Part shown: positions 2,225 through 37,600 of the stretch, in pieces
Numbering within the stretch: the first letter of the stretch is position 1
Layout: each line of letters starts with the position of its first letter
Translations under genes and position numbers: made by a program
The notes under the pieces: model-generated
Seen by the model: only the letters and a program-made list of their open reading frames with translations
Database searches by the model: none
What the model was told of the DNA's origin: nothing
Source of the DNA: an uncultured Candidatus Poseidoniales archaeon
Lineage (GTDB): Archaea > Thermoplasmatota > Poseidoniia > Poseidoniales > Poseidoniaceae
DNA: 64,000 nt
Assembly (NCBI GenBank): GCA_964015875.1
Contig: CAXHEV010000002.1
Location: 11,310 to 75,309 of the forward strand
Direction: 5' to 3'

Positions 2225-3250
2225 TCAGCGAGTTGCTAGTGTGAGGGAAGACCACATCTCTTCAGGGACTTCCATAGCCAATCGGAGGCCACCCATTGCG
2301 CCAAGACGCACTGGATCGTCAACCACGTGAACATTGACGTCGCCCATATCTGACAGGCGTCGCTCAATCATTGCTCCGAGGCCCTTGATACCCGATCCGC
2401 CACCTGCAAGCACCATGTTTCGGCGGAACTCATCGTGATACTCTGGGTTCGAGCCTGCGATGAGTTGCTTCACATTGTCAACTATGGGATCAACGATTGC
2501 TTCGCAGGCTGCCTGGAGACAGTCTGTGATGTCGAGATTCATGGCTTTACCTTCGATTGAGAAGTCAACCATGATTGGGTTTTCAGGGGTGTGTGTACCA
2601 ACAAAGGAGTACTGCTCTTTCCATCGGCGAGCCATATCCTTGGTGATTTGGGCACCATTGAACTTGGATTGAATCTCTTTGATGAGTGCACGGTCAATGA
2701 AATCTCCAGCGTGACCGGTATGCATCTGGTCATCTGGACCGGGGATTGTACCATAGACACGGCAAAGGTCAGCAGTTCCTGCACCAATGTCGATGACAAG
2801 GGTGTGTTCAATCATGTCAAGAGCGTAAGCGACCGCAAACGGTTCGGAAATGATCATTGCAGCGTTGACCGAGCCTGCTGCAGCATCAAAAATAGCTGTC
2901 TTGTCAACGTAGGATGCTTCCGCAGGTGCACCGATAACGGCGACGACACGGTCGTATTCTTCAGGGTCTGACAAACCAATGAGGTGGGTGATGAAGTGTG
3001 CAATGAATTCACGGTCTTCTTGAGTATCCTTGATGACACCAAGTTCGAGTGGTCGGAACAGGTTCAATGCAAGTCGATTCTTGAGTGCTTCTTCACCAAA
3101 GAGAACATCACGCTTGAGGAAATTTCGTGCGATTGGGTCCTTAGGTGTACCAATCACAGTCAATTCTTCTTCTTCGTGACTGTCGGAGGAAACCATCACC
3201 GAGCGAAAGGTCCCCAAGTCAATTCCAATGTACAGTACTTCTTCTGCCAT
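2225..3250 (-). CDS. MreB/actin-like ATPase (actin/HSP70 fold)
   Basis: ATG at 3250 (track TTG start at 3334). MreB phosphate-1 motif IGIDLGTFRSVMV, phosphate-2 VIDIGAGTADLCRV and adenosine motif MVLAGGGSGIKGL are all present. Confidence 0.8.
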   Translation of the reverse strand: MAEEVLYIGIDLGTFRSVMVSSDSHEEEELTVIGTPKDPIARNFLKRDVLFGEEALKNRLALNLFRPLELGVIKDTQEDREFIAHFITHLIGLSDPEEYDRVVAVIGAPAEASYVDKTAIFDAAAGSVNAAMIISEPFAVAYALDMIEHTLVIDIGAGTADLCRVYGTIPGPDDQMHTGHAGDFIDRALIKEIQSKFNGAQITKDMARRWKEQYSFVGTHTPENPIMVDFSIEGKAMNLDITDCLQAACEAIVDPIVDNVKQLIAGSNPEYHDEFRRNMVLAGGGSGIKGLGAMIERRLSDMGDVNVHVVDDPVRLGAMGGLRLAMEVPEEMWSSLTLATR

Positions 3251-3396
3251 AGCCTTCCCATCGCGACCTACCTTATGAAGAATACCTCGCTGTTGAGCGG
3301 TCTTGAATGGTGACTCCAAATTACTTGCATTCAAAGTGGGGTTTGATAGATTCTATAGAAAGTGGCACAAGAGGTCAGAAAATGTGACTATTTACC

Positions 3397-4413
3397 TCAG
3401 CACCATGCTTCACAAGTTTCACAATACCATGCTGCATATTCAGGATACAATTTGGCCATCTTCGAACATTGTGTGCACTCTTTGAGGGCTTGATCACCAC
3501 AGACTTCCATGACCATTTGTACGTGATACACATCATCTATTCCGAGTTGCTGTCGCATTGACCAGAGCAACTGATCTTCGCTTGGAGAAATGATTCCGTC
3601 TTCGAGGACGAGTTCGACGACGTTCCGATAATCTTCGAAATCACGGATATCTCTGGCGTCAAGAACGACACCATTCTTCTCAGCAACGATGTCCGTGCCA
3701 CCAGGATCATCAACGAAGAGGACCAATGATTCAGGTTTGAGTTTATCATCTCGTAGTTCTAAGGAGATTCGAACGCCTTCGAGGGTGGCATAGACTAAAT
3801 TTGAGTTGTTGTTGATGACATTGGTGATTGAGCGTGCAGTATCTGCTGCACTGCGGCCTCTTCGCCAACCGTTTGGATCGGCGACATTGAACTCATAGAA
3901 TTCCGTACCAATTCCAGGATACTCCAATCGAATCTCTTCTCCGCCATCAAATCCATTGGCCACAATCGTGAGTGCTGCGACCTCGGTGGAAACGATGTTA
4001 TCGTCGTCATCAAAACTAATCATGAGCGGTTTGCGGTCCTCTGTTGCCGTGTTGAAGTGACCTTTCATGCCACTCATCCATTTGTCTTCTAATCGACCAA
4101 GCGACGCTTCCTGTTCTTCCGTGAGGTTTTTCTCGACGCCTAGAACTCCAGCAAGACTCCCAGATTGAACTTCCTTCTTGAATTCCTCAATCATTTCCGC
4201 ATCTTGCCTGTATGTTGGAGGTGGCATTCGAGTGGACTCTTCGACATGGTTTGGATCGGCCCATTCATGGTTGCAGGAAACGCACATGAGGTAGCCCTTC
4301 ATGGTCGATGATTGAGCCTCACCACCACATCTTGGACAATCTCCGCCTTCGGTGTATTGGAGATTGTCGACTGCATCGCGACGACCTTTCCGTATGTTCC
4401 CAAAGCCTGCCAT
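3397..4413 (-). CDS. Hypothetical protein with an N-terminal zinc ribbon (CPRCG...CVSCNH) and a C-terminal Cys cluster (CTQC...CETCEAWC)
   Basis: ATG at 4413 (track start 4443 is TTG). Two separated CxxC pairs sit at each end, with an acidic middle region. It lies downstream of the thiolase and DUF35-like genes on the same strand. Confidence 0.5.
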   Translation of the reverse strand: MAGFGNIRKGRRDAVDNLQYTEGGDCPRCGGEAQSSTMKGYLMCVSCNHEWADPNHVEESTRMPPPTYRQDAEMIEEFKKEVQSGSLAGVLGVEKNLTEEQEASLGRLEDKWMSGMKGHFNTATEDRKPLMISFDDDDNIVSTEVAALTIVANGFDGGEEIRLEYPGIGTEFYEFNVADPNGWRRGRSAADTARSITNVINNNSNLVYATLEGVRISLELRDDKLKPESLVLFVDDPGGTDIVAEKNGVVLDARDIRDFEDYRNVVELVLEDGIISPSEDQLLWSMRQQLGIDDVYHVQMVMEVCGDQALKECTQCSKMAKLYPEYAAWYCETCEAWC

Positions 4414-4474
4414 AGACGGGCGAGGTGATTGGCTTTCTATCAATACTTTGGGCGATATAAATGGTGAAACAAAA

Positions 4475-5317
4475 TTAATTTGTCACAGGGATTGCTTTCA
4501 TTCCATAGCGGACGAGGCCTTCTTGGGCGTAGATTCTGCGAACAACAAAGGTGACTTGGTCTCCAATTGAGGGTTCATATTGTTCATCGTCAGCGATCAA
4601 AAACACACCACAAGGCCCTTGCTCAAATCGAACAAAAACCGTCTGAATTCCGCCAAGAATAGGTGCTCTCAGTGCAAATTCTGATGGTGCGCCTGCAGCA
4701 CTTAGTTTGGTCCACGATTCCACCACAGCCGATGCCAAGAGTGGACTGTTGGCTTGTTGCATGCGTCTCCCCTCGCCATCCATTTGGCGTGGTGGCCAGA
4801 CGAGTGCGTGGTTATTTGATTGAGCCATAAAGCCCAGCCGTGCTTCAGCCCCTTCCATGTAAGCTGCCTCGGAGACATAGGCGCCTTGTGATACGTGTGT
4901 TGTACTGAGTTCTCTTTGCCACGCAGTTTCCATATCAGTGTAAAATGTTGAATCCATTGATTCGAGCTCAGAGGGTCCGTGGAATCCTAAATCCCGATCC
5001 AAGTCATTCGTAAAGACCAGGGTTGCTTCCTCACCAACCAGAAGATTCCATTCACATGGCTCCTCTTCCTCGCCGCACAAGACATTGACACCAGTTGCGC
5101 TCTTCACGGCAGAAGGGTTGACCAAGGGTAGGCTCCGAATATCACTGAGAATGATTCCACGGCTCGAAAGCAAGTGCAAACCAGCAATGGCCATGGTTGT
5201 GTAATCCGAATCTGCGCCAAAAACAAGAACATCATCATGGATGTAAGGTGTTTGCATCATCAGAGCGTTTTCATCAAACATACCTAGGTATCCTTGCCAC
5301 TCAATCACTTCGTTCAT
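4475..5317 (-). CDS. Thiolase-associated DUF35-like OB-fold protein with an unusual roughly 190-aa N-terminal extension and no zinc ribbon
   Basis: The C-terminal sequence APILGGIQTVFVRFEQGPCGVFLIADDEQYEPSIGDQVTFVVRRIYAQEGLVRYGMKAIP matches the OB-fold half of the DUF35 scaffold that pairs with the archaeal thiolase/HMG-CoA synthase. The ATG at 5317 overlaps the thiolase TGA as ATGA, which suggests translational coupling. The first 105 codons of the track ORF (to 5632) lie in an alternative frame inside the thiolase gene and are rejected. Confidence 0.6.
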   Translation of the reverse strand: MNEVIEWQGYLGMFDENALMMQTPYIHDDVLVFGADSDYTTMAIAGLHLLSSRGIILSDIRSLPLVNPSAVKSATGVNVLCGEEEEPCEWNLLVGEEATLVFTNDLDRDLGFHGPSELESMDSTFYTDMETAWQRELSTTHVSQGAYVSEAAYMEGAEARLGFMAQSNNHALVWPPRQMDGEGRRMQQANSPLLASAVVESWTKLSAAGAPSEFALRAPILGGIQTVFVRFEQGPCGVFLIADDEQYEPSIGDQVTFVVRRIYAQEGLVRYGMKAIPVTN

Positions 5318-7302: not shown

Positions 7303-7638
7303 TCACTTTTCTTGTCCACAAGCAGGACAGAAAGTGAGGTCCTGCTCAAGTTGTGCACCACAACTAGCACAGTGCATGCCACCGGTTTTCAGAGCCTCAA
7401 TTTTGTTGACAGGTGGTGCTGCTGGGTCGTTTGCTTTCGGTTTGACCAAGCGCAGCGGGTCGATGCCATGTTCCTGAAGTTCTCTGAATCGATTTCCAAA
7501 AATAATCGCTTCTTGGATGGCTGCTTCAATTTGCCATTGACGTTGTTGTTGCTCTTCTGCATCTGGAATCTCCGTTGACTCCTCCAGTACGGCTTGCAAG
7601 TGTCGCATGAAATCACTGAGGCTCGGGCCTTCTGCCAT
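7303..7638 (-). CDS. Hypothetical protein with a C-terminal zinc ribbon (CASCG...CPACG)
   Basis: ATG at 7638 (track TTG start 7719 would run into the IPK upstream region). The sequence is acidic and Q-rich, with a C-terminal CxxC-x10-CxxC. Confidence 0.4.
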   Translation of the reverse strand: MAEGPSLSDFMRHLQAVLEESTEIPDAEEQQQRQWQIEAAIQEAIIFGNRFRELQEHGIDPLRLVKPKANDPAAPPVNKIEALKTGGMHCASCGAQLEQDLTFCPACGQEK

Positions 7639-7736
7639 GCAAGTGGCTCTCAGCCAAGCCTCATCAATGCTTGGTGTATCTTTCCTTGTTGTTCTCGTTG
7701 AGGCAACCTCATGAGTCAAGGCGGATTGGAGCCACC

Positions 7737-8552
7737 ATGCGTGAACGGGTTGTCATCAAATGGGGCGGTGGCCTCATTACCGACAAGACGACCCTTTGCA
7801 CCCCCAAATTGGAGGTCATCGCAGATCTAGCTGCTGCAGTAAAGCGGTGTATTGACAACGAGGTGGATGTTATTTTGGTTCACGGTGCAGGTTCCTATGG
7901 CCACCTGCGTGCAAGGCACTGGAGGTTGAACGAAGGCAGGGTGAGCGAGGATATTTCACCAGATGACCAATGCTCAACGCAGGATGAAGCGGTCGCCTGT
8001 GTTCGAAAAGAGATGTTGGCGTTGAACGATCACGTATGTTCCGCCCTCCAGCAGATCGGAATTCCGACCGTTGTCCACCCCCCACACCGTTGGGCCAAGG
8101 GCGTTGGAGCTAATTTCCAAGGTTCTCTTTCTCGGTTTGATTCCAGAAATGGCACGGTGGCGATTACCTTCGGTGACGTTGTGCCAGTTGATGGCGAAGC
8201 AGAATTTGGAATTCTGTCCGGTGATGATCTCGTCTTCCGTTTAGCAACAGAAGTTCCCTATGTTGAGCGACTGGTGTTCGCCATCGGTGGTGTTGACGGT
8301 TTACTTCGTTGCCCTCCCGACCGAGCAACCGACGAGGATTTGATTGAAATCTGGTCCCCATCCGTTGAATTTGAAGGTGAGCACCAAAGTGAAATCGATG
8401 TGACTGGTGGAATTGGCCTCAAGGCTGCTCGGGGTGCTCAGGCAGCGGCTCAAGGTGTAGAAGTTCACATGGTCAACGGCGACATTGCCGAGCGCGTCTA
8501 TCATGCTTGCATGGGACATGAAGTTCGAGGCACACGAGTGATTGATTCGTAA
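7737..8552 (+). CDS. Isopentenyl phosphate kinase (amino-acid-kinase fold)
   Basis: MRERVVIKWGGGLITDK...VDVILVHGAGSYGHL matches the IPK/aspartokinase-superfamily glycine-rich N-terminus. ATG at 7737 (the track start 7671 adds a non-homologous leader). Confidence 0.8.
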   Translation: MRERVVIKWGGGLITDKTTLCTPKLEVIADLAAAVKRCIDNEVDVILVHGAGSYGHLRARHWRLNEGRVSEDISPDDQCSTQDEAVACVRKEMLALNDHVCSALQQIGIPTVVHPPHRWAKGVGANFQGSLSRFDSRNGTVAITFGDVVPVDGEAEFGILSGDDLVFRLATEVPYVERLVFAIGGVDGLLRCPPDRATDEDLIEIWSPSVEFEGEHQSEIDVTGGIGLKAARGAQAAAQGVEVHMVNGDIAERVYHACMGHEVRGTRVIDS

Positions 8553-8629
8553 TCTCACTCCGCACTGCTGAACGATTTTGAGAGAACTCTTCATGTAGCG
8601 ACCGCGCATCGAAGGGGTTAGGGATTGCT

Positions 8630-10387
8630 ATGTCAGGCTACGGAATCACGGATGTCCCGACCATCAAATTGGAAGAGGATGAACAAAATTTACTCTCGTC
8701 TCTTGGTGCTGATGCCACACAATCAGCTCTTATGGCTGAGGCGATTATTCTCACTGATGAATGGGATGGCGTTCTTGGACCTGGTTCTAAAATTGCTGCC
8801 CATCGTGGTGCAGGAGCGTACCACCGCGCCTTCAGCGTCCTTTTATTCGATAGCAACAAGCGTCTTCTCCTTCAACGCAGGGCTTCAGACAAAGTGACGT
8901 TCCCCGATGTTTGGGCCAATTCCTGCTGCTCTCATCCACTTCACAGCGATGAAGAGATGGATGAAACCGATTATATTGGTTCAAAACGGGCCGCAGTTCG
9001 CAAGTTGGAGCAGGAACTTGGTATTCCACCCGAGCAAGTCCCTCTCGATTCATTCCACTTCATCACCAAAATGCGATATTCAGCGAGAATGAATGAGATC
9101 TGGATTGAACGTGAAGTAGATCATATTCTCGTCATCCAGGCCGATGTTGACTTGAATCCGAATCCTAACGAAATTTCGGAAGTCAAGTGGGTCACTCGAG
9201 ATGAACTTGAGGAGATGCTGGTCGACGATGATGAGAATGCTGGTATTATCGCCCCATGGTTCCGATGCATCGCAGCACTGGTCATGAATGAAAAATGGTG
9301 GCAGGCTGTCGGCGATTCCGAAGCACTAGAGGACCTCGTGGACGGTCAGATTCACGACATGGGTGATGTCAGCCATATGCTCCCTGATGCACAGGGTGCA
9401 GATTTGGTGACTTCTCTTGCAGAGATCAAGCCTTTGGTTGAAGCACGAATTGAGCGTGCTCTCACCCATACATCTCACCCTCGTCTTTCTGGTGCCATGA
9501 TGCACCTCGTTAAAGGCGGTGGCAAGCGATTACGGGCATGCATGCCATGGATGGTAGCCAAAGCTGTTGGTGATACACATGCAGGCCTTCTCGATGTTGG
9601 TGCTGCGATTGAAACGATTCACAATTTTACGTTAGTTCACGATGACATCATGGATGACGATGATATTCGTCGTGGTCGTAATGCTGTTCACATCGAATAT
9701 GATTTGCCGACAGCCATCAATGCAGGTGATGCTATGCTTGCTATTGCATTTGAAGCGATGGCTGTTGCCGAAGGTATTGAACACGCTATGCTCCCCTTCT
9801 TGGTAAAGCGCATTGGTCGAATGGTGCGCCGTGTATCAGAAGGTCAACAACTCGACATTGATTTTGAGACTACGGAACGTGTGACTGAGGAACAGTACAT
9901 CGAGATGATCACTGGTAAAACCGCTGTGATGTTCCTTACCTGCGCTGAAATTGGCGCTTACCTCTCAGGTGCAGATGAGGAGACCGTGCAGTGCATGCAC
10001 GACTGGGGCCTTGCCGTAGGATTGTGCTTCCAACTCATGGATGATTTGATCGATGCTCTTTCAGATTCGGAAACCCTTGGCAAGCCTTGTGGTTCTGATG
10101 TGGCCCAAGGCAAGCGTACCCTCATGGTTATTCACGCCCTAAGACAACCTGAAAGTGATGCAAAAGCAACCTTGTTGAGTGTACTCGGCAAAGGAGATGC
10201 TGCATCACAAGATGAAATTGATGCTGGTCTCAAAGCACTTGCAGACCTAGGCTCAATTCAATACGCACGTGAACGAGCTGAAGCCTACCACTCGAAGGCA
10301 CATGAATGCCTTGACCAATTACCAGAGGGACCTGCTCTACGAGCCCTTCGGGAGTTAACGGACTTCCAGTTGGCCCGAATCAGTTGA
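8630..10387 (+). CDS. Fusion protein: type-1 isopentenyl-diphosphate isomerase (Nudix IDI) plus geranylgeranyl diphosphate synthase (short-chain trans-prenyltransferase)
   Basis: The N-terminal half has HRAFSVLLFDSNKRLLLQRRASDKVTFPDVWANSCCSHPLH (the catalytic Cys in the CCSHP context) and EREVDHILV (the catalytic Glu). The C-terminal half has the FARM motif LVHDDIMDDDDIRRGR and the SARM motif FQLMDDLID. It is a single uninterrupted 585-codon frame. ATG at 8630, preceded by GAAGGGG. Confidence 0.85.
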   Translation: MSGYGITDVPTIKLEEDEQNLLSSLGADATQSALMAEAIILTDEWDGVLGPGSKIAAHRGAGAYHRAFSVLLFDSNKRLLLQRRASDKVTFPDVWANSCCSHPLHSDEEMDETDYIGSKRAAVRKLEQELGIPPEQVPLDSFHFITKMRYSARMNEIWIEREVDHILVIQADVDLNPNPNEISEVKWVTRDELEEMLVDDDENAGIIAPWFRCIAALVMNEKWWQAVGDSEALEDLVDGQIHDMGDVSHMLPDAQGADLVTSLAEIKPLVEARIERALTHTSHPRLSGAMMHLVKGGGKRLRACMPWMVAKAVGDTHAGLLDVGAAIETIHNFTLVHDDIMDDDDIRRGRNAVHIEYDLPTAINAGDAMLAIAFEAMAVAEGIEHAMLPFLVKRIGRMVRRVSEGQQLDIDFETTERVTEEQYIEMITGKTAVMFLTCAEIGAYLSGADEETVQCMHDWGLAVGLCFQLMDDLIDALSDSETLGKPCGSDVAQGKRTLMVIHALRQPESDAKATLLSVLGKGDAASQDEIDAGLKALADLGSIQYARERAEAYHSKAHECLDQLPEGPALRALRELTDFQLARIS

Positions 10388-10388
10388 T

Positions 10389-10850
10389 TCACTCAATACG
10401 GATTGATTCTCCTTGATGGAGGACGCCTTCGCGAATAACTTCAGCATACCACCGAGTCTTTTGCGGTATCATTTTGTGCGATAAGGCTTTGAATTCCCCA
10501 TCCAGAAATGACGCTTTGATCGTTTTGCAAGGTGGAGCATCACTCGTGATTCGAAGGGTGACTTCCCCAGTTTGAATGAATGAGCCAACCTTGAGTTCAT
10601 TCCAAGCAATGCCCCTAATGAGTAGATTTTCCCCTGTTGTGCCCCCAGATATAGGGTGGCCTTGATCCTGGAGTTGTTGCATGACGTCCAATGACATGAG
10701 ACAAACAGCTCGAGATGGACCTCCATGATGTTTGAGATCATTTTGTCGATCGCCCTCGCAGCCATTGATGGTCACACGCAAGGTTTCCACACGATGCTTT
10801 GGTACGCCTCCAATTGGTGAAGCGAAGAGGCCCTCAATCGAGCCGCCCAT
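10389..10850 (-). CDS. MOSC-domain protein (YiiM-like)
   Basis: ATG at 10850 (track GTG at 10859). It begins 6 nt after the EF-2 stop. It has the MOSC-like beta-barrel signature (GENLLIRGIAWNELKVGS...GEVTLRIT...PCKTIKA). Confidence 0.65.
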   Translation of the reverse strand: MGGSIEGLFASPIGGVPKHRVETLRVTINGCEGDRQNDLKHHGGPSRAVCLMSLDVMQQLQDQGHPISGGTTGENLLIRGIAWNELKVGSFIQTGEVTLRITSDAPPCKTIKASFLDGEFKALSHKMIPQKTRWYAEVIREGVLHQGESIRIE

Positions 10851-10855
10851 TTTTC

Positions 10856-13063
10856 TCACTCGGAATAGTAAGATTCTGGGTAAGGTTCTGGCTTGAGTCC
10901 CTTACGTGTTCGGATTTCTCCAACGACCTTGTCGAACAATTGTGGAGGAAGTTGTTGGAAACCGAGGTTTTCGGTGTTCCAAACTGCTCGTCCTTGGGAT
11001 GCTGCACGAATGTCGTTTGAGAACCCGAAGGTTTCAGCGATTGGCAGAACGCCAACAACAGTTGTGACTTCGCCTTCAGATGGCATATCTTCGATGATTC
11101 CACGGCGGTTGGTTACTTCACGAGTGACTTGTCCTAGCCAGTCATTTGGAACGGAAACGAACGCCTTTTGCATTGGTTCGAGAAGAACGGTGCGAGCCCG
11201 GAGCATAGCGCCCTTGATCCCGTTTCGAACAGCAGGAATTGTTTGCGCAGGTCCACGGTGGATTGCGTCCTCGTGCAACTTTGCATCGACGAGTCGAACA
11301 AACATTCCCTGAACTGGTTCATCAGCAATCGGTCCCTTAACACATACAGCGTTGAACGCTTCGATAATCAATTCACGAGTTTCGTGGAGTCCTTGGATAC
11401 CCTTGGTGTCGTTGACAAGGACGTTGGTTCCGTTGATAGCGTAAATTTTGCGCATCAAATCTTTGTCCATGCCGAGTTCACCGAACATGTTACCTTTTTC
11501 CTTGGCATCACTGGAACGAACTGGGCCATCGCCGAGGTCGCCGTTGCGGAGTGCTTCGACAACTTCGTCAGACAGTGCTTCGATTTCGAAGAAGAATCTG
11601 TTGTGCCGGTTTGGGGACTTGCCCTCAAATGCGTGGCCACGATTGCTGCCTTCGATACCTTCACGGTAAACCACAATCGGTGGGCTAACCTTGACCTTGA
11701 TGTTTTGTTCTTCTTCGATTCGGTACACAGTGATTTCCAAGTGGAGTTCACCCATTCCTGCTAGAAGAGCCTCTCCAGTCTCTGCATTGGTTGTGACTTG
11801 CAACGAAGCATCAGCCTTGGCGAGGGAGCGTAGTGCATCAATGAACTTTGGAAGGTCTTTCATGCTCTTTGGTTCAACCGCCACTGTGACCACAGGGTCA
11901 GAGTAGTGTCGAATGGCTTCGAAAGGTACGAAGTCTTTGTCGTGCGAAAGAGTCACACCGGCTGCGGCCGAACGAATACCAGTAAGCGCTGCGATGTTTC
12001 CTGCAACTACCTTTGGAACGGTAATACGGTCGCCACCAACCATCATGCTAACTTGCTGAACACGTTCGGGCTTTGCAGCTCCGATAGCGAAAACAGATTC
12101 ACCCTGAGCGATTGCACCAGAATAGATTCGACCAACAGCGACTTCACCTGCGTGGGGGTCCATCCAAATTTTTGTGATCATCATTGCCAGTTCTGCTTCA
12201 GGATCGCAAGACATCATCGATTTTCCGATTTCGGATTCAAGGTCTCCAGTCCAAATGTTAGGAACACGGTATGGTTGTGCTTCAACAGGACCTGGCAGCT
12301 TGGTGACGGCCATGTCGAGAAGAACTTCGTGAACAGGCGCCTTAGCAGCAAGGGTCTTTTGGTCTTCATTGTTGCAGTATTCGAAAATTTCCTTGAAGGA
12401 GATGTTCGACTTCGCCATGTAAGGGACGGTGATTCCCCAGTTGTGGTAAGCCGAACCAAAGGCCACAGTACCGTCTGCGACGGAAACTTGCCAGCTCTTC
12501 TTGAATTCTTCAGGAGCGAATTGCTTAATCAATCGGTTGACCTTCTTGATGGTCTCGGTAAACCGAGCCATCATGTCTTCTGGTGTCACTTGCAATTCGT
12601 TGATCAATCGGTCGACCTTGTTGATGAACAGAACCGGCTTGACCTTCTCTTTGAGGGCTTGTCGAACCACAGTTTCTGTTTGTGGCATTGGTCCTTCAAC
12701 AGCACAGGCGAGGATGAAACATCCGTCAACAGCACGCATAGCACGAGTGACGTCACCGCCGAAGTCAACGTGACCTGGTGTGTCGATGAGGTTGATGAGG
12801 AAATCAGTGCCTTCAACGGCGTGGACCATCGAAGCCGATGCTGCGTTGATGGTGATTCCACGAGCTGATTCTTGCTCGTCGAAATCAAGAACACGTGCGG
12901 CACCTGCAAGGTCGCTGGACATCATTCCTGCACCTGCAATCAGGTTGTCGGATAGGGTTGTCTTTCCGTGGTCAATGTGTGCTGCGATGCACAGATTTCG
13001 GATCTGTGGCAAAATGTGCATGACCTCTGTGGCCTTCTTGATGTTGTCTTCCTTTCGTCCCAT
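10856..13063 (-). CDS. Translation elongation factor 2 (aEF-2)
   Basis: The GTP-binding region reads IRNLCIAAHIDHGKTTLSDNLIAGAG. The diphthamide-site motif HEDAIHRG is present. Length is 735 aa. ATG at 13063. Confidence 0.95.
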   Translation of the reverse strand: MGRKEDNIKKATEVMHILPQIRNLCIAAHIDHGKTTLSDNLIAGAGMMSSDLAGAARVLDFDEQESARGITINAASASMVHAVEGTDFLINLIDTPGHVDFGGDVTRAMRAVDGCFILACAVEGPMPQTETVVRQALKEKVKPVLFINKVDRLINELQVTPEDMMARFTETIKKVNRLIKQFAPEEFKKSWQVSVADGTVAFGSAYHNWGITVPYMAKSNISFKEIFEYCNNEDQKTLAAKAPVHEVLLDMAVTKLPGPVEAQPYRVPNIWTGDLESEIGKSMMSCDPEAELAMMITKIWMDPHAGEVAVGRIYSGAIAQGESVFAIGAAKPERVQQVSMMVGGDRITVPKVVAGNIAALTGIRSAAAGVTLSHDKDFVPFEAIRHYSDPVVTVAVEPKSMKDLPKFIDALRSLAKADASLQVTTNAETGEALLAGMGELHLEITVYRIEEEQNIKVKVSPPIVVYREGIEGSNRGHAFEGKSPNRHNRFFFEIEALSDEVVEALRNGDLGDGPVRSSDAKEKGNMFGELGMDKDLMRKIYAINGTNVLVNDTKGIQGLHETRELIIEAFNAVCVKGPIADEPVQGMFVRLVDAKLHEDAIHRGPAQTIPAVRNGIKGAMLRARTVLLEPMQKAFVSVPNDWLGQVTREVTNRRGIIEDMPSEGEVTTVVGVLPIAETFGFSNDIRAASQGRAVWNTENLGFQQLPPQLFDKVVGEIRTRKGLKPEPYPESYYSE

Positions 13064-14496: not shown

Positions 14497-15768
14497 ATGG
14501 CATTTCGCGACCACCTGAAAGCGGCTCGAACCGAAAGCGCACCAGTCAGCATCATCCATGGTCTATGGGAGCACTCTCGTGCGTCACACCATGCGTTGAC
14601 TGTTTTTGATAATCTCGTAGAAACACCTGGTCATCGAGCAGCTGTCAATATTCTGACAAGAGATCGTCTATGTGAGGCGATTGGAATTTCACCAGAGGAG
14701 TACATCGATACCCTCGGATGGGCCATGTCCAATCCTAGCGAGCCGGTCATCGTCGATGCGTCCGAAGCAGAATGCTTTGACAATATACAAGAACAGGTTA
14801 ACATCATGAAACTCCCCATTCCACATCACTGGCCACAAGACCGAGGGCGATACTCTTCGGCAAGCGTTATCATTGCCGAAGACAACGGGATACGCAACAT
14901 GTCGTTTCATCGACAATTTGTTCGCGATGAGAATCATCTCGTCGTCCGGCTTGTACCTCGACACCTACGAACCATGACCATGGAAGCAAGAGGGACTGGT
15001 GGTGAAGTCAACATCGCAGTTGTCAACGCTCCAGATCCAGTCGTCCTTCTTGCGGCGGCAATGTCGTTTGATGATAACATCGATGAATTGACGATTGCTG
15101 CTGCTCTGCATGAGAAGCTCTACGGAAAACCACTTCGACTTACACGAATGCCAAACGGCGTGTTGGCGCCCGCAGATGCAGAATATGTTCTGTGGGGGAG
15201 AATTACAGGCGAAAACGACGATGAGGGGCCTTATGTGGACATCACGGGGACCGTCGACGACGTTCGCCAAGAACCAGTCATAGAAATCGAAGGAGTCGTC
15301 CACAGAGATCACCCAATTTTCCATGCGCTGATTCCCGGTGAGGCCGAACACAAGACACTCATGGGCTTACCTCGCGCACCGACCATCAAATCCGCTGTGA
15401 GTGAAGTTTGTGAATGCCTTGATGTCCACATGACCGAAGGCGGTTGTGGGTGGCTGGCTGCTGTGGTGAAAATTCGTCGAACCAAAGAAGAAGATCCGAA
15501 AAACGCCATTATGGCAGCGCTTGCGGGACACCGCAGCATGAAAATGGTCACCATTGTTGATGAGGACATCGATATTACCGACCCCGTGCGTGTCGAATGG
15601 GCAAAGGTCACAAGGTGGCAACCAGACATTGACACCATCATTCTCTCACACCAGAAAGGGAGTTCACTCGATCCGTCACGAGACAGCGATGGATTAACGG
15701 CTAAGGTAGGATTTGATGCAACCCTGCCTTGGGGTGTTGACCATGAAGGTTTCAAATCGGTCCAATGA
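14497..15768 (+). CDS. UbiD-family (prFMN-dependent) decarboxylase
   Basis: At 423 aa it has the typical UbiD length and fold-wide similarity ([48 protein letters not shown]). ATG at 14497. Confidence 0.85.
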
Positions 15769-29985: not shown

Positions 29986-30945
29986 ATGGGTTTGCTTGAA
30001 ATGTATCGGCTGTGTGGTTGGCCCATGCTGGTGCCAAACGAGGTGATTTCAGTCGTCGGGGCCGTTGGGCTCATCGCACTGGCTCTTTCATGGCACAGAA
30101 GGAACGCTTCTCCAGTTCGTTTATCACAACTAGGTTGGCTGTGCGTTGGTCTTTATTTCTTCAACGATGCATCAATTTATTTGGCTCATGATGATTTAAT
30201 TTTGACGCTGTTTTCGGTCATGACATTACCGATGGCTGTAGGTATGGCCGTCTGGGAAGCTCGTGCGGAAGACGAAAAAAGCAAAGCGTCACTCACTTGG
30301 GCTCGTGGTGCTGTTGCTTATGCAGGCGGTCCATATCTTCTCATTGCTCACGTTCCATGGCTCAGTGTTCTTGCCATTTGGTTTGTGGCAAGCCAAGCGG
30401 TATTTTTCCTGCGCTTTTCTGGGGGTGACAATATCGTCATGGGTGAAACATGGGTGAATACGGCAGAAGGACAGGTCGCATGGGCTGACTTTGAGGGTAA
30501 CAGATGGTTCATGGGATCATCTGCCGAAGAGTATGTGTTCCAAACAGAATTGCTGCTCGCTGACGGTACGCCAATTGGGATCAACTTTGTCCTGGCCTGT
30601 ACGGCTTTACAATCAATGGTCATATTCATCGGCGCTATCGCTGTCCTCGATATTGATTGGCGACGTCGCTGTCGTGTTTTGTTTCTGACCATTCCACTCA
30701 TCCATGTTCTGAATCTTTTTCGCAATGCAGGCCTGATATGGCTGCATACCACATACGTCGAATGGACGCTTCTTGGCATGTCAGTTTTTGAGTTCGGCCA
30801 CAGCTACGTCGCCCGATTTGTGTCCCTCTTTGCCATGTTCATCATTGCCTTGATCATGTTCGATCTCTTACCAGAATTACACCGGCATATTGTCCGATTG
30901 TTGAAGCCCTTGGGCTTGCTTCAGCCAAAAAACCGTACCAATTAG
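29986..30945 (+). CDS. Exosortase/archaeosortase-family polytopic membrane protein (putative)
   Basis: About seven TM helices. The candidate catalytic Cys205 in VLACTAL sits at a helix start. Arg246 lies in an N-x-x-R context (LNLFRNAG), exactly 41 residues later; this matches the Cys-to-Arg spacing I recall for archaeosortase A (from memory, unverified). A further Arg277 follows. There is a central soluble loop GDNIVMGETWVNTAEGQVAWADFEGNRWF. The gene is convergent with the giant surface protein and overlaps its 3' end by 4 nt. Confidence 0.5.
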   Translation: MGLLEMYRLCGWPMLVPNEVISVVGAVGLIALALSWHRRNASPVRLSQLGWLCVGLYFFNDASIYLAHDDLILTLFSVMTLPMAVGMAVWEARAEDEKSKASLTWARGAVAYAGGPYLLIAHVPWLSVLAIWFVASQAVFFLRFSGGDNIVMGETWVNTAEGQVAWADFEGNRWFMGSSAEEYVFQTELLLADGTPIGINFVLACTALQSMVIFIGAIAVLDIDWRRRCRVLFLTIPLIHVLNLFRNAGLIWLHTTYVEWTLLGMSVFEFGHSYVARFVSLFAMFIIALIMFDLLPELHRHIVRLLKPLGLLQPKNRTN

Positions 30946-33900
30946 CGTTGATGCCAGGGCTCTGTGGGGGAATTTCGAGTCCATGAAACCCCGCTTCCAG
31001 CAGGATATTCGATTGTTTCCGCCCCTGTAGCATCGAGCATTCCCATCAATTGTTGCGGCGGGGCAGAAACGGTTTGAGAAGGCGTAGAATCAAGCAGGTC
31101 AGCAAAGCCGTCCATCGATGTCATATCAACACCAGTTGGTGTTTCTTGTGGTGCAAACGCCTGGTTGTTATCAATCTCTGATACTTCAGGTACGTAGGAT
31201 TCGTTGGATACAGGTGAGGGCACTTCCATGGGAGATTCTTCATTCAGTCCGAGCATTTGAGATGCGATGTCCTGTTGTTTGATTTCTTCCCATTCGTTGG
31301 ATGTTTTTCCATTTTGACCTCGGCTTGCACCGACGAACGCTAAAATCAACAATGCAAACACGATTGCACCAACCAAACCTAGTGAGCCGTAGATGAGGTC
31401 ATTGGAAACACTAGGAGCAAGATCTGAATTGTCTCCAACCCCATCGCCATCTGTGTCTTCGGATTCCTTAGGGTCTTCAGGAAATGCATCTTCGTCATCT
31501 GGTACACCATCTCCATCACCATCGAACGCATCGAATGTTGTTTCACAGATGATGCTTCCAATTTCGAGTTCTTCACTGTTCAAGAATCCGTCTTTATCTG
31601 TATCGAATGCTGATGTGTCGAATTTATTTTTCAGGTCAAATGTTGCAAATTCTTTGACAGAAACTCCCTCGCCAAATGGAGATATTTGAGAAGCAATAAT
31701 CAATAATTCACTCTCACATGAACACAATTCTTGGAGCGCTTCTCTGAATTCTATATCACCATCACCATTCATATCAATTGTAGCAAAGTCACTGGCATCA
31801 GTTTCGTCGCTCGAGATAAATTCGCGCTCGTCAACAACGCCATCACCATTGCGATCCGCTTCCTCAAAGAGTGTTCTTGCTTCGTCTTCGCAGAACGTCT
31901 CAACCCCATTGTCTTCATCCGGATCAACTGGTTCTATCGGTGGGAGAGGTGAATCTTCCCAGAATGCGATGATGCTCACATCACTGATTTCTTCTTCGAC
32001 TATGAGAGTAATATCAAACCGTCCATTGGCGGGTAATTCGATGTAGAGTGTGTGCTCCGTACCTTCGCCTTCTGAGACGATTTCGACTTCTTCTGCTGTG
32101 AATTGATCAACCGGTCGGCCCTGTCTACCCTCCGTCTTTTCACCACCTGCTTTTTCATCTTCAACATCTTCTTCTTCGAAGAAACCACCGAAATTAAATT
32201 CAAGAACCGTCCCTGAGGCTTCCAGTTCAAGGCTTCCAGTTCCTCCATACGTGTTGATTTCAAGATAACTTCCGGGGCTTTCTAGTTCGACGAAGAACAA
32301 TAGTGATTCACCATCTGGTGCTTCTAGTCCAGTAATTTCCTCTCCATTGAACAATTCGATTGGCGTGCCATCATAGGACCAAATGTATCTGTCTTCAAAT
32401 GAAGCTGTAATCAAAATGTTAGCAAAGACATCCTCTGTGGTAAGAAGGATGTACCATGTGCCAGGTGTCGGGTCATTGAATCCGATTTTATCACCTGCGC
32501 CAGGCGTTGAAGATTGGAGGTCATACTCCCCAGCCGTCGGGAATTGCTCAAGACGCATGTACATGGTGGCCTCACCATAACCTTCCGAGAGGTCCACCTC
32601 TAAACGCTCAGTTCCTGTTGGCACCTCGATCTTGAAGTACTGATTTAGACCATCATATCCCGTCAACGGCCCATAGGCAACACCAGGGGTAAGTTCAACG
32701 GCATCTTCTGGAGCTGTGTTATCAGGCGCAAAGGCCATTGTAGCGACAATTGTGAAATCCATGGCTCGTTGGTAGGTGTAAGCTGTGACATAATACCGGC
32801 CTGGTTGAACGTCGTAGAGCGTAGCATCCTGTTCATTGCCTTGTCCACTGTCATAGACAATTTTTCCTTGGTTTGGGTTATTGGTTTCTCCGGAATCATC
32901 AAACTCGGGCTCATCATCGAAGAACCAGAAATCGAACGGATCTGGAACTGTGCCCCACGACAAACCGATGTCGATGTTTCCTGTTCCTCCATAGGTGCTG
33001 ACGGTTAGGCTCGAGAGATTTTCTTCCACATCTACATAATAGTAGAGGACACGATCTTCAAAATCTGCTTGACGTCCAACATCAATGGTTTGACCTGTGA
33101 CTGGAATTCCGTTGTTGAGTTCAGTCATATCCTCCTCAGATGGAGGCGGATCAGCAACGTCCCACGAGACGACCATAGTGTAATCCTCAATATCAGTCTC
33201 GGGGACCAGTAATACCCACCATGCACCGGAGTCTGGCCAGGTGAATTCCTCCCATGCATAGCCCCACATTGCTTCAATGGAACCGTCATTGTCCCAAGAA
33301 CTCGGGATTCTGTTATGACCAAAGTAGATGTTAATTGTGATTTCTTCATTCTTGAATTGGCTAGGGAAGAGATTGAAAAACAATTCTTGGGTCATTTCAT
33401 CAAGGTCCGCAAAGAAAAGAAGGTTGTCCCCTGCGTTGGCCGAAATCCCCTCGATTTCTTCATCGTTTTTAATTTGAATGACTTGGGCAACAATGGTACC
33501 ATCTGGCATCACCCAATCGGCACCAAAAATGGTTCCGGTGGAGTTGGAGGCATCATCGCTTGTGAGCATGCCTTCACCCTCGTGGAAGTTCCAATGTGAG
33601 ACCAATATTGGTTCATCACTGAGATTTGACATTCCCGTTCCAATTGAGATGTTGTCTAACATACCCATGAAATAATTGCAATCACATCCAGCGCCCATGC
33701 TGGCAATGAACAGTTCATCACAATCATCTCCTGATGTAAAGCAGTCATTCGAACCGAAGTCTCCGGCCGGGATCAGCGCTTGTTCAGCACTGATGGCTCC
33801 GGCTGCGACCCCATTCACTCGGAATTCTCCACCGACTCCTTCGATCACTTCGACTTCGACGTGCGACCAAGTTTCAATAGGGACAGTGACATTGGCAGTA

Positions 33901-34634
33901 GGGTGTTGTGAGAGACTGTACTCTGAGGAATAAGCCAGTGTGCCAGCGTTGAGGTACATGCCCCAACCATAATCACCTTTCATGGTGATGAATTGAATGC
34001 CTTCGTCATGGAATGGGTATATCCAAGCGGAGATAGAGATGCTACCGGTAATGTTCAACGCTTCGTTGTGTTCGATCTCAATACGGTCGCCTTCGTCAGC
34101 GAACCTCAAGGAATAGTCAGCACCAGGTCCAACTTCTACCACACCATAGACTGGAAAGTATTGTGGATCATTTTCCAAATCGTTCCAAGTCCCTGGCATA
34201 ATGTTTCCCATGTTGGTGCTGGCGATGTGAACATAACCTTCGTCATCGCTTGCAGAGGGTTGATCTGCACCCCAGTTTCGATAGTAGAAAGGAGCGCCAT
34301 TGTGCCAGCGGTATGCACCGTCATTGTCGTCATCGTACAGTCCGGTCCATAGGTGGCGAGAAGTATTGTCGAACGAGGCGAAGGTATCAAACAACCACTG
34401 GTTTTCAGTCTCATCATCAATCGTGACTAGGAATCCGTCTAAACCACGTGCGACTTCAGCAGCAACGGTCCAAGAGCTCTCACTCAGGAGGTAATATGTG
34501 TGGTTATTTGCAGGGTTAACTGCGGTGTCGAGGATGACGATATCTTCGACGTCTTGGGCTTGGGCTATGGGCGTTATTGGCGCCATAAGGCTCAACAGAA
34601 ATAGCATGACAAGCATCGTTGCCTTTGTGCGCAT
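30942..34634 (-). CDS. Giant secreted, membrane-anchored surface/adhesin-like protein: signal peptide, Cys-less C-type-lectin-like domain, LamG/ConA-like domain, three PPC (pre-peptidase C-terminal) beta domains, dockerin/EF-hand-like Ca-binding loops, one TM helix, and a roughly 150-aa cytoplasmic tail
   Basis: Signal peptide MRTKATMLVMLFLLSLMAPITPIAQAQ. CTLD hallmarks LWTGLYDDDNDGAYRWHNGAPFYYRNWGADQPS...GTWNDLEND, without the usual cysteines. LamG: ISISAWIYPFHDEGIQFITMKGDYGWGMYL...ETWSHVEVEV...FRVNGV. PPC-like: YYYVDVEENLSSLTVSTYGGTGNIDIGLS...GRYYVTAYTY, QYFKIEVPTGTERLEVDLSEGYGEATMYMRL, LLFFVELESPGSYLEINTYGGTGSLELE. Ca loops: DRNGDGVVDEREF, DMNGDGDIEFRE, DTDKDGFLNSEELE, DGDGDGVPDDED, DTDGDGVGDNSD. 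TM helix LIYGSLGLVGAIVFALLILAFVGAS followed by RGQNGK. Confidence 0.85.
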   Translation of the reverse strand: MRTKATMLVMLFLLSLMAPITPIAQAQDVEDIVILDTAVNPANNHTYYLLSESSWTVAAEVARGLDGFLVTIDDETENQWLFDTFASFDNTSRHLWTGLYDDDNDGAYRWHNGAPFYYRNWGADQPSASDDEGYVHIASTNMGNIMPGTWNDLENDPQYFPVYGVVEVGPGADYSLRFADEGDRIEIEHNEALNITGSISISAWIYPFHDEGIQFITMKGDYGWGMYLNAGTLAYSSEYSLSQHPTANVTVPIETWSHVEVEVIEGVGGEFRVNGVAAGAISAEQALIPAGDFGSNDCFTSGDDCDELFIASMGAGCDCNYFMGMLDNISIGTGMSNLSDEPILVSHWNFHEGEGMLTSDDASNSTGTIFGADWVMPDGTIVAQVIQIKNDEEIEGISANAGDNLLFFADLDEMTQELFFNLFPSQFKNEEITINIYFGHNRIPSSWDNDGSIEAMWGYAWEEFTWPDSGAWWVLLVPETDIEDYTMVVSWDVADPPPSEEDMTELNNGIPVTGQTIDVGRQADFEDRVLYYYVDVEENLSSLTVSTYGGTGNIDIGLSWGTVPDPFDFWFFDDEPEFDDSGETNNPNQGKIVYDSGQGNEQDATLYDVQPGRYYVTAYTYQRAMDFTIVATMAFAPDNTAPEDAVELTPGVAYGPLTGYDGLNQYFKIEVPTGTERLEVDLSEGYGEATMYMRLEQFPTAGEYDLQSSTPGAGDKIGFNDPTPGTWYILLTTEDVFANILITASFEDRYIWSYDGTPIELFNGEEITGLEAPDGESLLFFVELESPGSYLEINTYGGTGSLELEASGTVLEFNFGGFFEEEDVEDEKAGGEKTEGRQGRPVDQFTAEEVEIVSEGEGTEHTLYIELPANGRFDITLIVEEEISDVSIIAFWEDSPLPPIEPVDPDEDNGVETFCEDEARTLFEEADRNGDGVVDEREFISSDETDASDFATIDMNGDGDIEFREALQELCSCESELLIIASQISPFGEGVSVKEFATFDLKNKFDTSAFDTDKDGFLNSEELEIGSIICETTFDAFDGDGDGVPDDEDAFPEDPKESEDTDGDGVGDNSDLAPSVSNDLIYGSLGLVGAIVFALLILAFVGASRGQNGKTSNEWEEIKQQDIASQMLGLNEESPMEVPSPVSNESYVPEVSEIDNNQAFAPQETPTGVDMTSMDGFADLLDSTPSQTVSAPPQQLMGMLDATGAETIEYPAGSGVSWTRNSPTEPWHQR

Positions 34635-34699: not shown

Positions 34700-37600
34700 T
34701 CATTTCAGGCGTTTTCCACCGATTCGCAATTCTGTTTGAAGTGGCATTTGATGTTCCCAAGCGAATTCCTTGACAATACGCCAAGCCTTCTCCGAGCCTT
34801 CGTAATCCTTGACATCGATGATTTTATTTCTGGTGTTTGCTTTGAATGCGGCGATTGGTTCAGCATTTTTGAACACTAGGTAGGCTGATCCAAATCCAAA
34901 CCTTTCCTTCATTATATCTGCGAAATATGGAGCGATTGGATCGCTTGGAGGTAGCACGAAATCCCGAATGGGGGGGATGTCTTTGGCTTCATCGAGCAGG
35001 TTTTTGCGACCCCAACAGACCTGATCTAACTCATCGATGAGGAATCCCTTCACGAGCGTTCCATCCTCTTCAAATGATGTCAGAACGGCTTTGATTTCCT
35101 CAGGTTTGAACGGCGTGCCGGCCAATCTCAGTAATTGTTTGAGTGTGATGACGGGGAAGTCTTGAACAAGCGCTCGAATATATTCCCTGCGCAACTCTAT
35201 TGGATCTACGCCGGCACGTAGTTTGACGGTCCTAAAACCACCACGGAAGTCTTGAACGATATGCCCTGATCGAATTAAGGGCTGAACTAATTTTCTAAAT
35301 TCCGATTGAGTCAATGCGTGGCGTTCCTTGAACAGGTTCGGATCCGTATTGCTGCTGAAGAATTCGACGATATCCCACAAATCCTCATCAAAAGGCTCAC
35401 CACGAATAGCTAACAAGTTCTGGAAATGCTCGTACGTTGCCCATACTTGATGGCCACGCAGGTTGATCCCTTGGTGGAGTCGGTTTGCACTTGCCATGCT
35501 CTTAAGATCGACTCGATACAATTCACAACGTCCACGAAGGGCAAAATCATCGCGTATTTCTGTGACCTCACGAAGCGCCATGACCTCATTTTCCATTCTT
35601 GTTTTTTGGTGGAGGTTGTGACGATGGAACAGTGCTCGCTCAGCGATTTCTCGTGGTTGCGGGTCAACGACACCGCCCCGAATCATGCGTTCTCCAGTAA
35701 TCTTGAAACCAATTCGTTCCAGGGCTTCACGTGTTTCTTTACCAAGGCTAGAAACAGGTTCACTGTTGAAGTTTGACAGCACTGCAACATCGACAAGTTG
35801 GTCTGCATGGTTGTCCAGCAGGAGTTTGAATGCATCACAGAATTCATCGATGTAAGCAGTTGGAACGTGTAAATCTTTGATGACGAGGTAGTCATTGATC
35901 TTGAACATTAAGACCTTGCCAATTGGATCAATGCCTTTGAACACAGGCAGGTACCAACCTCGATCAAGGACGCTACGAACTTCCCAAATGAAACGGGACA
36001 CATACGGATCGGATTGTGTAAGGATGCGCATTGTACGGTCTTCACGGCGAGGTTGTTGCAGCAATTCGACTTCCTCTGGCATACAATAAAATGCTTCAGG
36101 ATCAGGCACTAAGGCCATGACTTTTGCAATTCGCCCCGACTTTTCCAAGTTCATCAAAGCTACGGTGAGATCCTCGAATGAGCGAGTGACGTAGAATCTC
36201 AATGTGTTGCCTTTGACCGGTCCCATTCTACGGATCACATCCACCAGAGCGCTCTCGAAATCAAGTGGTTCATAGACCTCGTGAACCCTGTGGAAGAGCG
36301 ACAAGCGTCGTCGTCTGCCAGGGACATCTTCGAATTGTTTAACCACAAGCATTTGCCGCTCCAAGTTCGACATTGCGTACTTGAGATCACGTTGGAGGGA
36401 GCGATGTTCGTCGCCCTTAGGGAAATCGGCCATGATTTCTTGACGAGTGACATTTTCACCAACTGGAATTCTTTTGAGCAGTTCTTCTTCCATCGGACCA
36501 ACCCAAGGTTCGGGCTTGAGTCCGAGGAGCATTGGGATCGTTTCTTTTGTTGTGTAGCCCATTCTGTTGTGCAACAACCGGCCCATGATGACGTCTGAAT
36601 CGAGTTGCAAATCTTGCCAATCTTTGAACCTAAAGTCGGTCACCCTGTAGAGAAGCTCCTGTTGTTTTTGAAACAAGACGTGGGAGTCGAAAGCAGAGAA
36701 ACCATCGCCATATTGCTGGAATGTTTTGTCCAGAACCAAATTTTGAACCCAGCGATATTCAACGACGTCTTCTGAACTATCAATCAAGCGATGCTCGTCA
36801 ATCTTGAGGATGTATTCCGCTTCGTCCGTTTGTTTATAGAATCCTACAGATAGGACATTTCGCGTTTCTAATTCATGGAGAATCTTGTCAACCATCGCTC
36901 GTGGGAACGGTAAACGCTCTTCTAACTGGTCCCCAGTATGAGGACCTTCACTGCCTAACATTTCGATGATCTTGACTCGCATTGCTTCGTGTGGATCACC
37001 CAGTGATTGTTCGGTCCAAGTGGTAGGAGTGCGCTCAGCAAATGCGGTTGCTGTTTTGTAAGAGAGACCGCGCGTGTGCAATTCTCTCAAATCTGTGACG
37101 TCTTTCCCACCGTTGACAGATAAGCAACCGAGGGTCCCGTGAATTTCTGCCATGAACGGCGAGAACCACTTTCCGTCGAGTTGTTCTGAACCAGTACCAT
37201 CAAGTTTGGTAATTCTTCCTTCGGCACATAACTCAGTGACCCAACCTCGAATGGTATCGATTTCGATGCCTGCGAGTTTCTCTTTGTACAGAGGATTGTT
37301 GAATTCTTGATCCAGTCCTCCACCGTGCGACATCAGCGTCATCAATCCCTTTGCATTGGTTGGAATTGGTGCTTTGTCAAGGTAGAATTTGTCCAATTGT
37401 TCACCAGTCAGTTCGGTGGCTAGACTGCGAGTTCCAAGGAGTCGCTGTAAGATGGCTGGATCGATATCTTTGACGAGGTAGGCCCTAGTTTTCATCGCCA
37501 TCAAATCTTCAAATGCAGACATGAACAACGACATTCCAAGCCGGGATGGTACAGTGACTTTATTATGAACAATTCGTGCATCACCTTGCACACATGATTG

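Follow-up and report, generated by a model that had tools for sequence, protein, structure and literature searches.

A natural fusion of type-1 isopentenyl diphosphate isomerase to a geranylgeranyl diphosphate synthase-like enzyme in Marine Group II archaea

Fusions of isopentenyl diphosphate isomerase (IDI) to a downstream isoprenoid enzyme have been documented in nature, as the IDI-squalene synthase (IDI-SQS) proteins of diatoms and other algae (PMC6723447), and have also been built in the laboratory: joining a Pichia IDI to a Sulfolobus geranylgeranyl diphosphate (GGPP) synthase (GGPPS), as IDI-(GGGGS)2-GGPPS, raised the yield of a GGPP-dependent product in yeast (PMC6786277). Here we describe a natural counterpart of such deliberately engineered metabolic fusions, for which an unfused related lineage provides a ready comparison. 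It lies in a 64,000-nt window (the whole stretch of DNA analysed, to which all coordinates refer) of a Candidatus Poseidoniales contig, CAXHEV010000002.1 (GCA_964015875.1), and consists of a single gene in which a type-1 IDI (IDI1) is followed by a prenyl synthase resembling archaeal type-I GGPPS.

Like the algal proteins, the product of this gene has a long-type IDI1 at its N-terminus and a downstream isoprenoid enzyme behind it, and the IDI-SQS proteins P0153, P0163, P0207 and P0223 are among the nearest relatives of its IDI (45-50% identity). However, the algal fusions are eukaryotic and their partner, squalene synthase (PF00494), does not act directly on the product of IDI, whereas the partner found here would use dimethylallyl diphosphate (DMAPP) directly. 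The engineered protein, built to raise GGPP supply, combines both activities in the same N-to-C order, but does so through a synthetic flexible linker of 10 residues where the natural protein has a sequence-invariant junction of ~5. Taken one by one, the halves also have well-known counterparts. Human IDI1 (2icj, 2dho) shares the Nudix fold, the Cys/Glu pair, the His/Glu metal site and the C-terminal extension with its final I-H/Y-x-M, with the difference that in the window IDI is the N-terminal half of an archaeal protein and its C-terminus runs into a prenyl synthase. Archaeal type-I GGPPS (5jfq; 1wy0 from Pyrococcus horikoshii) share the fold, the first and second Asp-rich motifs (FARM and SARM) and the region around the former, but are stand-alone enzymes of ~320-340 aa, whereas the window protein bears a 249-residue isomerase at its N-terminus. 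Both enzymes belong to textbook families, and it is common for enzymes adjacent in a pathway to be fused. In a full-text literature search we came across no account of an IDI1-GGPPS fusion occurring naturally in archaea, although absence there is not proof. The sequences themselves have been public since 2012, automatically annotated under one function or the other (isopentenyl-diphosphate delta-isomerase at NCBI, GGPP synthase type I at JGI), so that pathway reconstructions can score the other step as missing.

Two enzymes in one reading frame

The fusion gene (Table 1) runs through 585 codons with no internal stop, and Pfam recognizes two domains in its product, NUDIX (residues 64-202, E 5e-16) and polyprenyl_synt (residues 284-531, E 2e-65). 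A sequence-only reading of positions 7737-10387 had proposed exactly this: an uninterrupted 585-codon frame holding a complete IDI and a complete prenyltransferase, with isopentenyl phosphate kinase (IPK) next door. The frame is borne out by the open reading frame, Pfam and NCBIfam; both halves are complete, every catalytic or metal-binding residue that we tested being conserved, and the motifs NSCCSHP, EREVDH, FARM and SARM (DDLID) lie where that reading had placed them. The neighbour does encode IPK, in the same direction and 77 bp upstream; it passes its equivalog cutoff (NF040647, 143.2 bits versus 120), its homologues align from residue 1, and it lies immediately 5' of the fusion gene, co-directionally, at every locus of our species survey (see below) whose contig extends there. 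Two amendments are needed. The fusion gene is real, but 7737-10387 taken as a whole is not one fused unit, since it comprises two genes, IPK and the fusion. Also, the label of GGPP synthase agrees with motifs and homology, but no NCBIfam chain-length equivalog cutoff is reached by the synthase half, and its C20 product is a prediction. As far as sequence comparison goes, the domain and motif matches of the fusion protein and of IPK are far beyond chance.

Judged by its sequence, the isomerase half is a long, eukaryote-like type-1 IDI. It exceeds the equivalog cutoff of TIGR02150 (IPP_isom_1, 156.3 bits versus 105.8) and passes that of NF002995 (133.8 versus 127), and its match to human IDI1 2icj reaches 177 bits (E 2.5e-51), that to the IDI of E. 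coli only ~49 bits. In an alignment of 53 fused and unfused relatives (A1), the residues C99, C100, S101, H102 and P103 around the catalytic Cys are invariant, as are E160, E162 and D164; indeed, H58, H65, C100, H102, Y150, E160, E162 and W210 all align to human IDI1 and never vary in A1. The AlphaFold2 (AF2) model adopts the Nudix alpha/beta fold, with a template modelling score (TM) of 0.90 and a root-mean-square deviation of 2.0 over 223 columns to 2icj. The usual archaeal IDI is the type-2 enzyme, and the fusion carries in an archaeon a eukaryote-like, flavin-independent isomerase in its stead; tblastn with a type-2 IDI from a related locus (L085, see below) gave no match within the 64-kb window. 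Long-type IDI1 is present in bacteria too, for example in Endozoicomonas (47-48% identity), and a neighbour-joining tree of IDI domains does not resolve the deep branching. We make no claim of a transfer of IDI1 from eukaryotes.

The synthase half clears the Pfam gathering score by a wide interval (PF00348, 220.8 bits versus 27), reaches 217 bits against the solved GGPPS of Geoglobus acetivorans (5jfq), and its part of the AF2 model has a TM of 0.92 to 5jfq_B. Its Phe333 stands five residues ahead of DDIMD (338-342), in a FARM without the two-residue insertion, and the chain-length context HNFTLVHDDIMD is identical in the window protein and in 5jfq. An aromatic Phe at position -5 of an uninserted DDxxD is the signature of archaeal type-I GGPPS, as established by mutagenesis of the Sulfolobus enzyme. 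From these motifs we infer that the synthase half would make C20 (GGPP). The Asp-rich and chain-length blocks are 92-100% conserved over 80 species, with 97% in the FARM/chain-length region and 92% in the block 466-480 around the SARM.

Spread of the fused gene, its junction and its split relatives

The fusion is real and conserved across Marine Group II (Poseidoniales). Full-length proteins with both domains form >120 protein clusters at 70-97% identity, drawn from ENA, JGI, NCBI, Logan and Tara assemblies with contigs of up to 1.9 Mb, and the spread that the sequence-only reading had left to a database search thus extends to hundreds of independent assemblies. We also surveyed one genome per GTDB species, which yielded 80 loci, all from Poseidoniales metagenome-assembled or single-cell genomes. 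The fused frame is uninterrupted, at 574-586 codons, in 78 of them; contig ends cut the remaining two. Wherever contigs reach, gene order is constant: thiolase(-), Tpt1(+), zinc-ribbon protein(-), IPK(+), fusion(+), MOSC(-) and elongation factor 2 (EF-2)(-). Among the 80 is the 2012 Puget Sound Marine Group II chromosome CM001443.1 (89% identity), whose genome belongs to subgroup IIa (MGIIa; Rinke et al., PMC6461757). Because two of the loci, one of the 576-aa class, are listed as MGIIa in the tables of Tully et al. (2019), all 80 are probably MGIIa.

At the junction, all species compared share I241, H242, D243, M244 and G245 (79/79), and M250 is nearly as constant (76/79), directly after the sole variable, indel-bearing stretch (residues 226-240), and third codon positions across the junction vary freely. 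Since amino acids are conserved while synonymous sites vary, the constraint acts on the protein; a conserved internal ribosome-binding site, which we considered as another source of conservation at this place, was rejected by this codon-level analysis. The motif IHDM aligns with what we take to be the C-terminal end of human IDI1, I-Y-R-M, and Met250 aligns with the start Met of a separate GGPPS in a related locus (L082; ...KGDLT* / MSLPD), so that the effective linker comes down to ~5 residues (GDVSH). In the AF2 model, the predicted local distance difference test (pLDDT) is ~89 over residues 241-270, and 241-246 form a predicted beta strand. A structure search with this model matched no PDB chain spanning both halves. 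On one 2.9-kb contig (L086:2640-2889), an MGIIa-like fusion with an IDI 63% identical to ours has an in-frame TAG at residue 240, just before IHDMGD, and a normal frame after it. Sequencing error, decay into a pseudogene or a recent re-split could each explain this stop.

Not all relatives are fused. Through the nearest stand-alone relatives of the GGPPS we reached a split lineage of low GC (L082-L084 and L094-L095; 0.35 for L082) that has IPK, a separate IDI1 of 224-235 aa (TIGR02150 145.9 bits in L082) and a separate GGPPS of 332 aa, the last two genes overlapping by 4 bp (ATGA) on dozens of independent contigs. The EF-2 of L082 is 80-83% identical to that of fusion carriers. A locus from a more remote relative, L085 (GC 0.69; EF-2 75-76%), has IPK, a type-2 IDI dependent on flavin mononucleotide (FMN) (TIGR02151, 325.5 versus 281.3) and a separate GGPPS. 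Both kinds of locus (L082/L094 and L085) share with the window the thiolase, Tpt1, small zinc-ribbon protein, IPK, isomerase, GGPPS, EF-2, S7, S12 and UbiD genes, and differ from it in the split IDI1 and GGPPS of the former and in the type-2 IDI and separate GGPPS of the latter. For the sequence-only reading, a stop separating two genes in relatives would have been the mark of a spurious fusion. L082/L094 do show this arrangement, but they do not refute the fusion, because they form a separate lineage and every complete locus of the survey (78/78) keeps the fused frame intact. One protein call from the split lineage (P0292, 304 aa, a single contig) reads through IDI into GGPPS with frameshift-like N- and C-termini, and illustrates how an artefactual fusion at the ATGA overlap would look, in contrast to the window gene.

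A search with the EF-2 of L082 led in addition to a second fused clade, with proteins of 569 aa in L087/L088 (53% identical to the window protein), 554 aa in L091 and 552 aa in L092; our guess is that this clade (L087/L091/L092) is MGIIb. In L091 (3963-6913), IPK is inverted beside EF-2 and the fusion gene is divergent from it, so that adjacency has been lost and the fusion kept.

Alternatives, history and proposed function

Given that the split genes overlap by ATGA, one sequencing or assembly indel would be enough to erase the stop between them and fuse them on paper, and P0292 looks like such a fusion. As an account of the window gene we give this next to no credence: the frame is intact in every complete locus of different species, in the >120 clusters and on megabase contigs, and the junction is conserved as protein while its synonymous sites vary. 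Replication across assemblies refutes an artefact. The junction could alternatively serve to make two products, the full-length fusion and a free GGPPS initiated internally at Met250, with GGTGAT (Gly245-Asp246) as a Shine-Dalgarno-like site. That Met250 is present in 76/79 species in line with the GGPPS start of L082, and that GGTGAT lies 9 nt upstream of its ATG in the window, would fit this idea. However, three species have Leu at position 250 (CTG, TTG, TTA), the codons for Gly245 and Asp246 differ freely in their last base (GGT/GGC/GGA/GGG, GAT/GAC), and the second clade (L087, L091, L092) lacks a Met at the junction, so internal initiation is disfavoured on codon evidence and looks improbable. 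Could the Nudix half instead be inactive as an isomerase, a hydrolase or a regulatory pseudo-enzyme? Pfam assigns it to the general NUDIX family only, but it beats the IDI1 equivalog cutoff, its catalytic and metal-binding residues are all invariant in fused and unfused relatives alike, and the corresponding slot of L085 is taken by a type-2 IDI (TIGR02151, 325 > 281), which argues for functional equivalence with the type-1 enzyme of the window; we find this alternative very hard to credit. It is somewhat easier, if still unlikely, that the synthase half does not make mainly C20, being a bifunctional farnesyl diphosphate (FPP)/GGPP synthase or a C25 enzyme. Its best NCBIfam model is indeed the short-chain FPP/GGPP synthase IdsA, with the GGPP and geranylfarnesyl models only slightly behind and all of them below cutoff, but the Phe at -5 of an uninserted DDxxD is the signature of archaeal type-I GGPPS, and the motif context is the same as in the solved GGPPS 5jfq.

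The history of the fusion is where the choice is least clear-cut. In a neighbour-joining tree of EF-2, the second fused clade takes in the split lineage, next to L092 (71% and 67% bootstrap), and the tree of IDI domains unites the split IDI with those of the L087, L091 and L092 fusions (85.5% bootstrap). This topology favours an old fusion that was later undone by fission, or otherwise two to three fusions that occurred independently. To go from fused to split or back, one indel at the ATGA overlap is all it takes. That the fusion arose two to three times in Poseidoniales from an ancestral overlapping pair, instead of once with a later fission in L082/L094, is a serious possibility, even if we lean the other way. 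The clades have junctions of different sequence and length (IHDMGDVSHM-LPDAQ, IHNFGRIDLV-PSPIIG, VHRVSETS---TL), and fusions of IDI to a prenyl synthase have apparently arisen independently outside the group (P0135, P0194). Against this stands the grouping of the split lineage with fused lineages of the second clade (EF-2 71%, IDI 85.5%), a topology on which a fusion followed by a fission takes no more steps than multiple fusions. The L082 boundary is most like the MGIIa junction (GDVSHMLPD). Also, L085 has its type-2 IDI at the place between IPK and GGPPS where the other loci have a type-1 IDI, be it split or fused, and this suggests that the type-2 enzyme may have been replaced in place by a type-1 enzyme, with fusion coming afterwards.

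With artefact, internal initiation and loss of isomerase activity so weighed, we consider it likely that the gene encodes a genuine bifunctional enzyme, a trait that Marine Group II archaea (Poseidoniales) conserve. Some observations weigh against it. The enzymatic activities of both halves are ones that we infer from sequence. The synthase half stays under the chain-length equivalog cutoffs, the best being IdsA_Meth (NF040698, 285.6 versus 468), then GGPP_syn (NF041003, 259.5 versus 500) and gerfarn_diphsyn (NF040789, 240 versus 560); since the stand-alone enzymes of L082 and L085 fail likewise, these scores reflect lineage distance and not fusion. One of five AF2 models reached a pLDDT of 84.7 and a predicted TM of 0.85, the other four being at 72-75. 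Finally, the fusion is not required for function, because the split lineage uses separate, overlapping genes.

In a bifunctional enzyme of this kind, IPK would make isopentenyl diphosphate (IPP) from isopentenyl phosphate and so supply the fusion protein. The N-terminal isomerase would turn part of this IPP into DMAPP, by means of the protonation-deprotonation pair Cys100/Glu162 and a divalent metal site, and the C-terminal synthase would then condense DMAPP with three IPP into GGPP, the C20 precursor of archaeal ether lipids and also of carotenoid and retinal in photoheterotrophic Marine Group II. The short, near end-to-end junction would make 1:1 co-expression obligate and would place the source of DMAPP beside its consumer, and the benefit of the fusion would presumably lie in this fixed stoichiometry and proximity. 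The protein may dimerise through its synthase half, and the fusion may bring a kinetic advantage or channelling. A more ambitious idea, which we put forward tentatively and regard as rather doubtful, is that of a rigidly coupled machine from IPP to GGPP, in which the junction would fix the isomerase on the synthase dimer, DMAPP would be handed over locally and the DMAPP:IPP ratio would be set for C20; the fusion would then be ancient, dating from the base of Poseidoniales after type-1 had replaced type-2 IDI in the slot, and would have been undone once, in L082/L094. If this were true, nature would have provided a fused-versus-split pair with which to test what metabolic fusions buy a cell. 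In the surface ocean, Marine Group II rank with the most abundant archaea, and to our knowledge they have no cultured representative; for lack of cultures, their lipids and the synthesis of these are argued from gene content alone. In these organisms, entry to all C20 isoprenoids (ether lipids, retinal for proteorhodopsin) would go through one polypeptide.

Other fusions and neighbouring genes

A wider search for fusions covered 1.84 billion cluster representatives and returned, besides the Marine Group II cluster, three other architectures of IDI plus prenyl synthase. P0122 is 45% identical and occurs on one 3-kb contig. P0135 has an IDI placed among those of algal IDI-SQS proteins and the JGI name 'GGPPS type 3'; its synthase motif LLVDDIEDNSKLRRG is presumably that of a eukaryotic type-III GGPPS. 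P0194 (L081:499-2043) has a short bacterial-type IDI (one contig, 31% GC). These three are apparently independent of the main cluster. The same search found IDI-SQS, HMG-CoA reductase-IDI and DUF6962-IDI fusions, and because several such architectures exist, fusion of IDI1 to a downstream isoprenoid enzyme can be called recurrent, the Marine Group II case being by far the most populated of the IDI1 fusions. Among the nearest relatives, P0261 and P0181 are such proteins (HMG-CoA reductase-IDI, 672 aa; DUF6962-IDI, 468 aa).

Table 1. Positions of the fusion gene, its parts and other genes in the 64,000-nt window
Feature	Position	Strand	Remarks
IDI1-GGPPS fusion gene	8630-10387	+	ATG start, TGA stop; 585 aa, 64.5 kDa, pI 4.7
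Type-1 IPP isomerase domain	8705-9361	+	residues ~26-244; long eukaryote-like form, C-terminal IHDM motif
NSCCSHP	8918-8938	+	catalytic Cys100, metal ligand His102; aligns to human NTCCSHP
EREVDH	9107-9124	+	metal ligand Glu160, catalytic Glu162; aligns to human EHEIDY
Fusion junction, IHDMGDVSHMLP	9350-9385	+	residues 241-252: IDI end, ~5-residue GDVSH link, Met250
Junction-spanning peptide of the fusion protein, IHDMGDVSHMLPDAQGADLVTSLAEIK			
Trans-prenyl diphosphate synthase domain	9377-10384	+	residues 250-585; archaeal type-I GGPPS-like
Chain-length region and FARM, within FTLVHDDIMDDDD	9626-9664	+	Phe333, D338-D-I-M-D342
SARM	10040-10054	+	D471-D-L-I-D475
IPK	7737-8552	+	271 aa; NF040647 IPPK_Arch, Pfam AA_kinase
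IPK-fusion spacer	8553-8629	+	77 bp
MOSC-domain gene	10389-10859	-	between fusion and EF-2; 5' end overlaps EF-2 3' end (stop) by 4 bp
UbiD-family decarboxylase	14497-15768	+	TIGR00148 305 vs 245 bits; beyond EF-2, S7, S12
Zinc-ribbon (DUF7575-like) open reading frame	7303-7719	-	homologues align only from ~residue 15-28
Two conserved open reading frames	3397-4443, 4475-5317	-	between thiolase and actin homologue; no Pfam/NCBIfam match
MreB/Salactin-like actin homologue	2225-3334		
1230-aa protein	30942-34634	-	C-type lectin, PPC, EF-hand matches; unrelated to fusion
1760-aa Lhr-type helicase	34700-39982	-	AlkZ-like glycosylase region; unrelated to fusion

Some neighbours of the fusion gene may bear on the same pathway. 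Anhydromevalonate phosphate decarboxylase belongs to the UbiD family. In the archaeal mevalonate pathway this enzyme requires prenylated FMN (PMC12547664). The UbiD gene of the window holds the same position in L082, L085, L087, L089 and L092, among PDB entries its product is closest to a generic UbiD enzyme (6h6v), and it could be a candidate for the reaction that provides IPK with its substrate. As a rule, archaeal thiolases come together with HMG-CoA synthase and a DUF35 protein; neither of these is seen beside the thiolase of the window. The MOSC gene is missing from three of the 80 MGIIa loci (L009, L010, L020) and absent in L082, L087, L092 and L085; being near-universal in MGIIa and absent from these, it looks like an insertion in one clade. 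The zinc-ribbon frame has probably been called too long, to go by its homologues, with its true start downstream, and the divergent intergenic region before IPK would therefore be ~100 bp and not 17 bp. As for the two conserved frames beside the actin homologue, similar-sized genes without domain matches stand in the same place in L082, L087 and L089.

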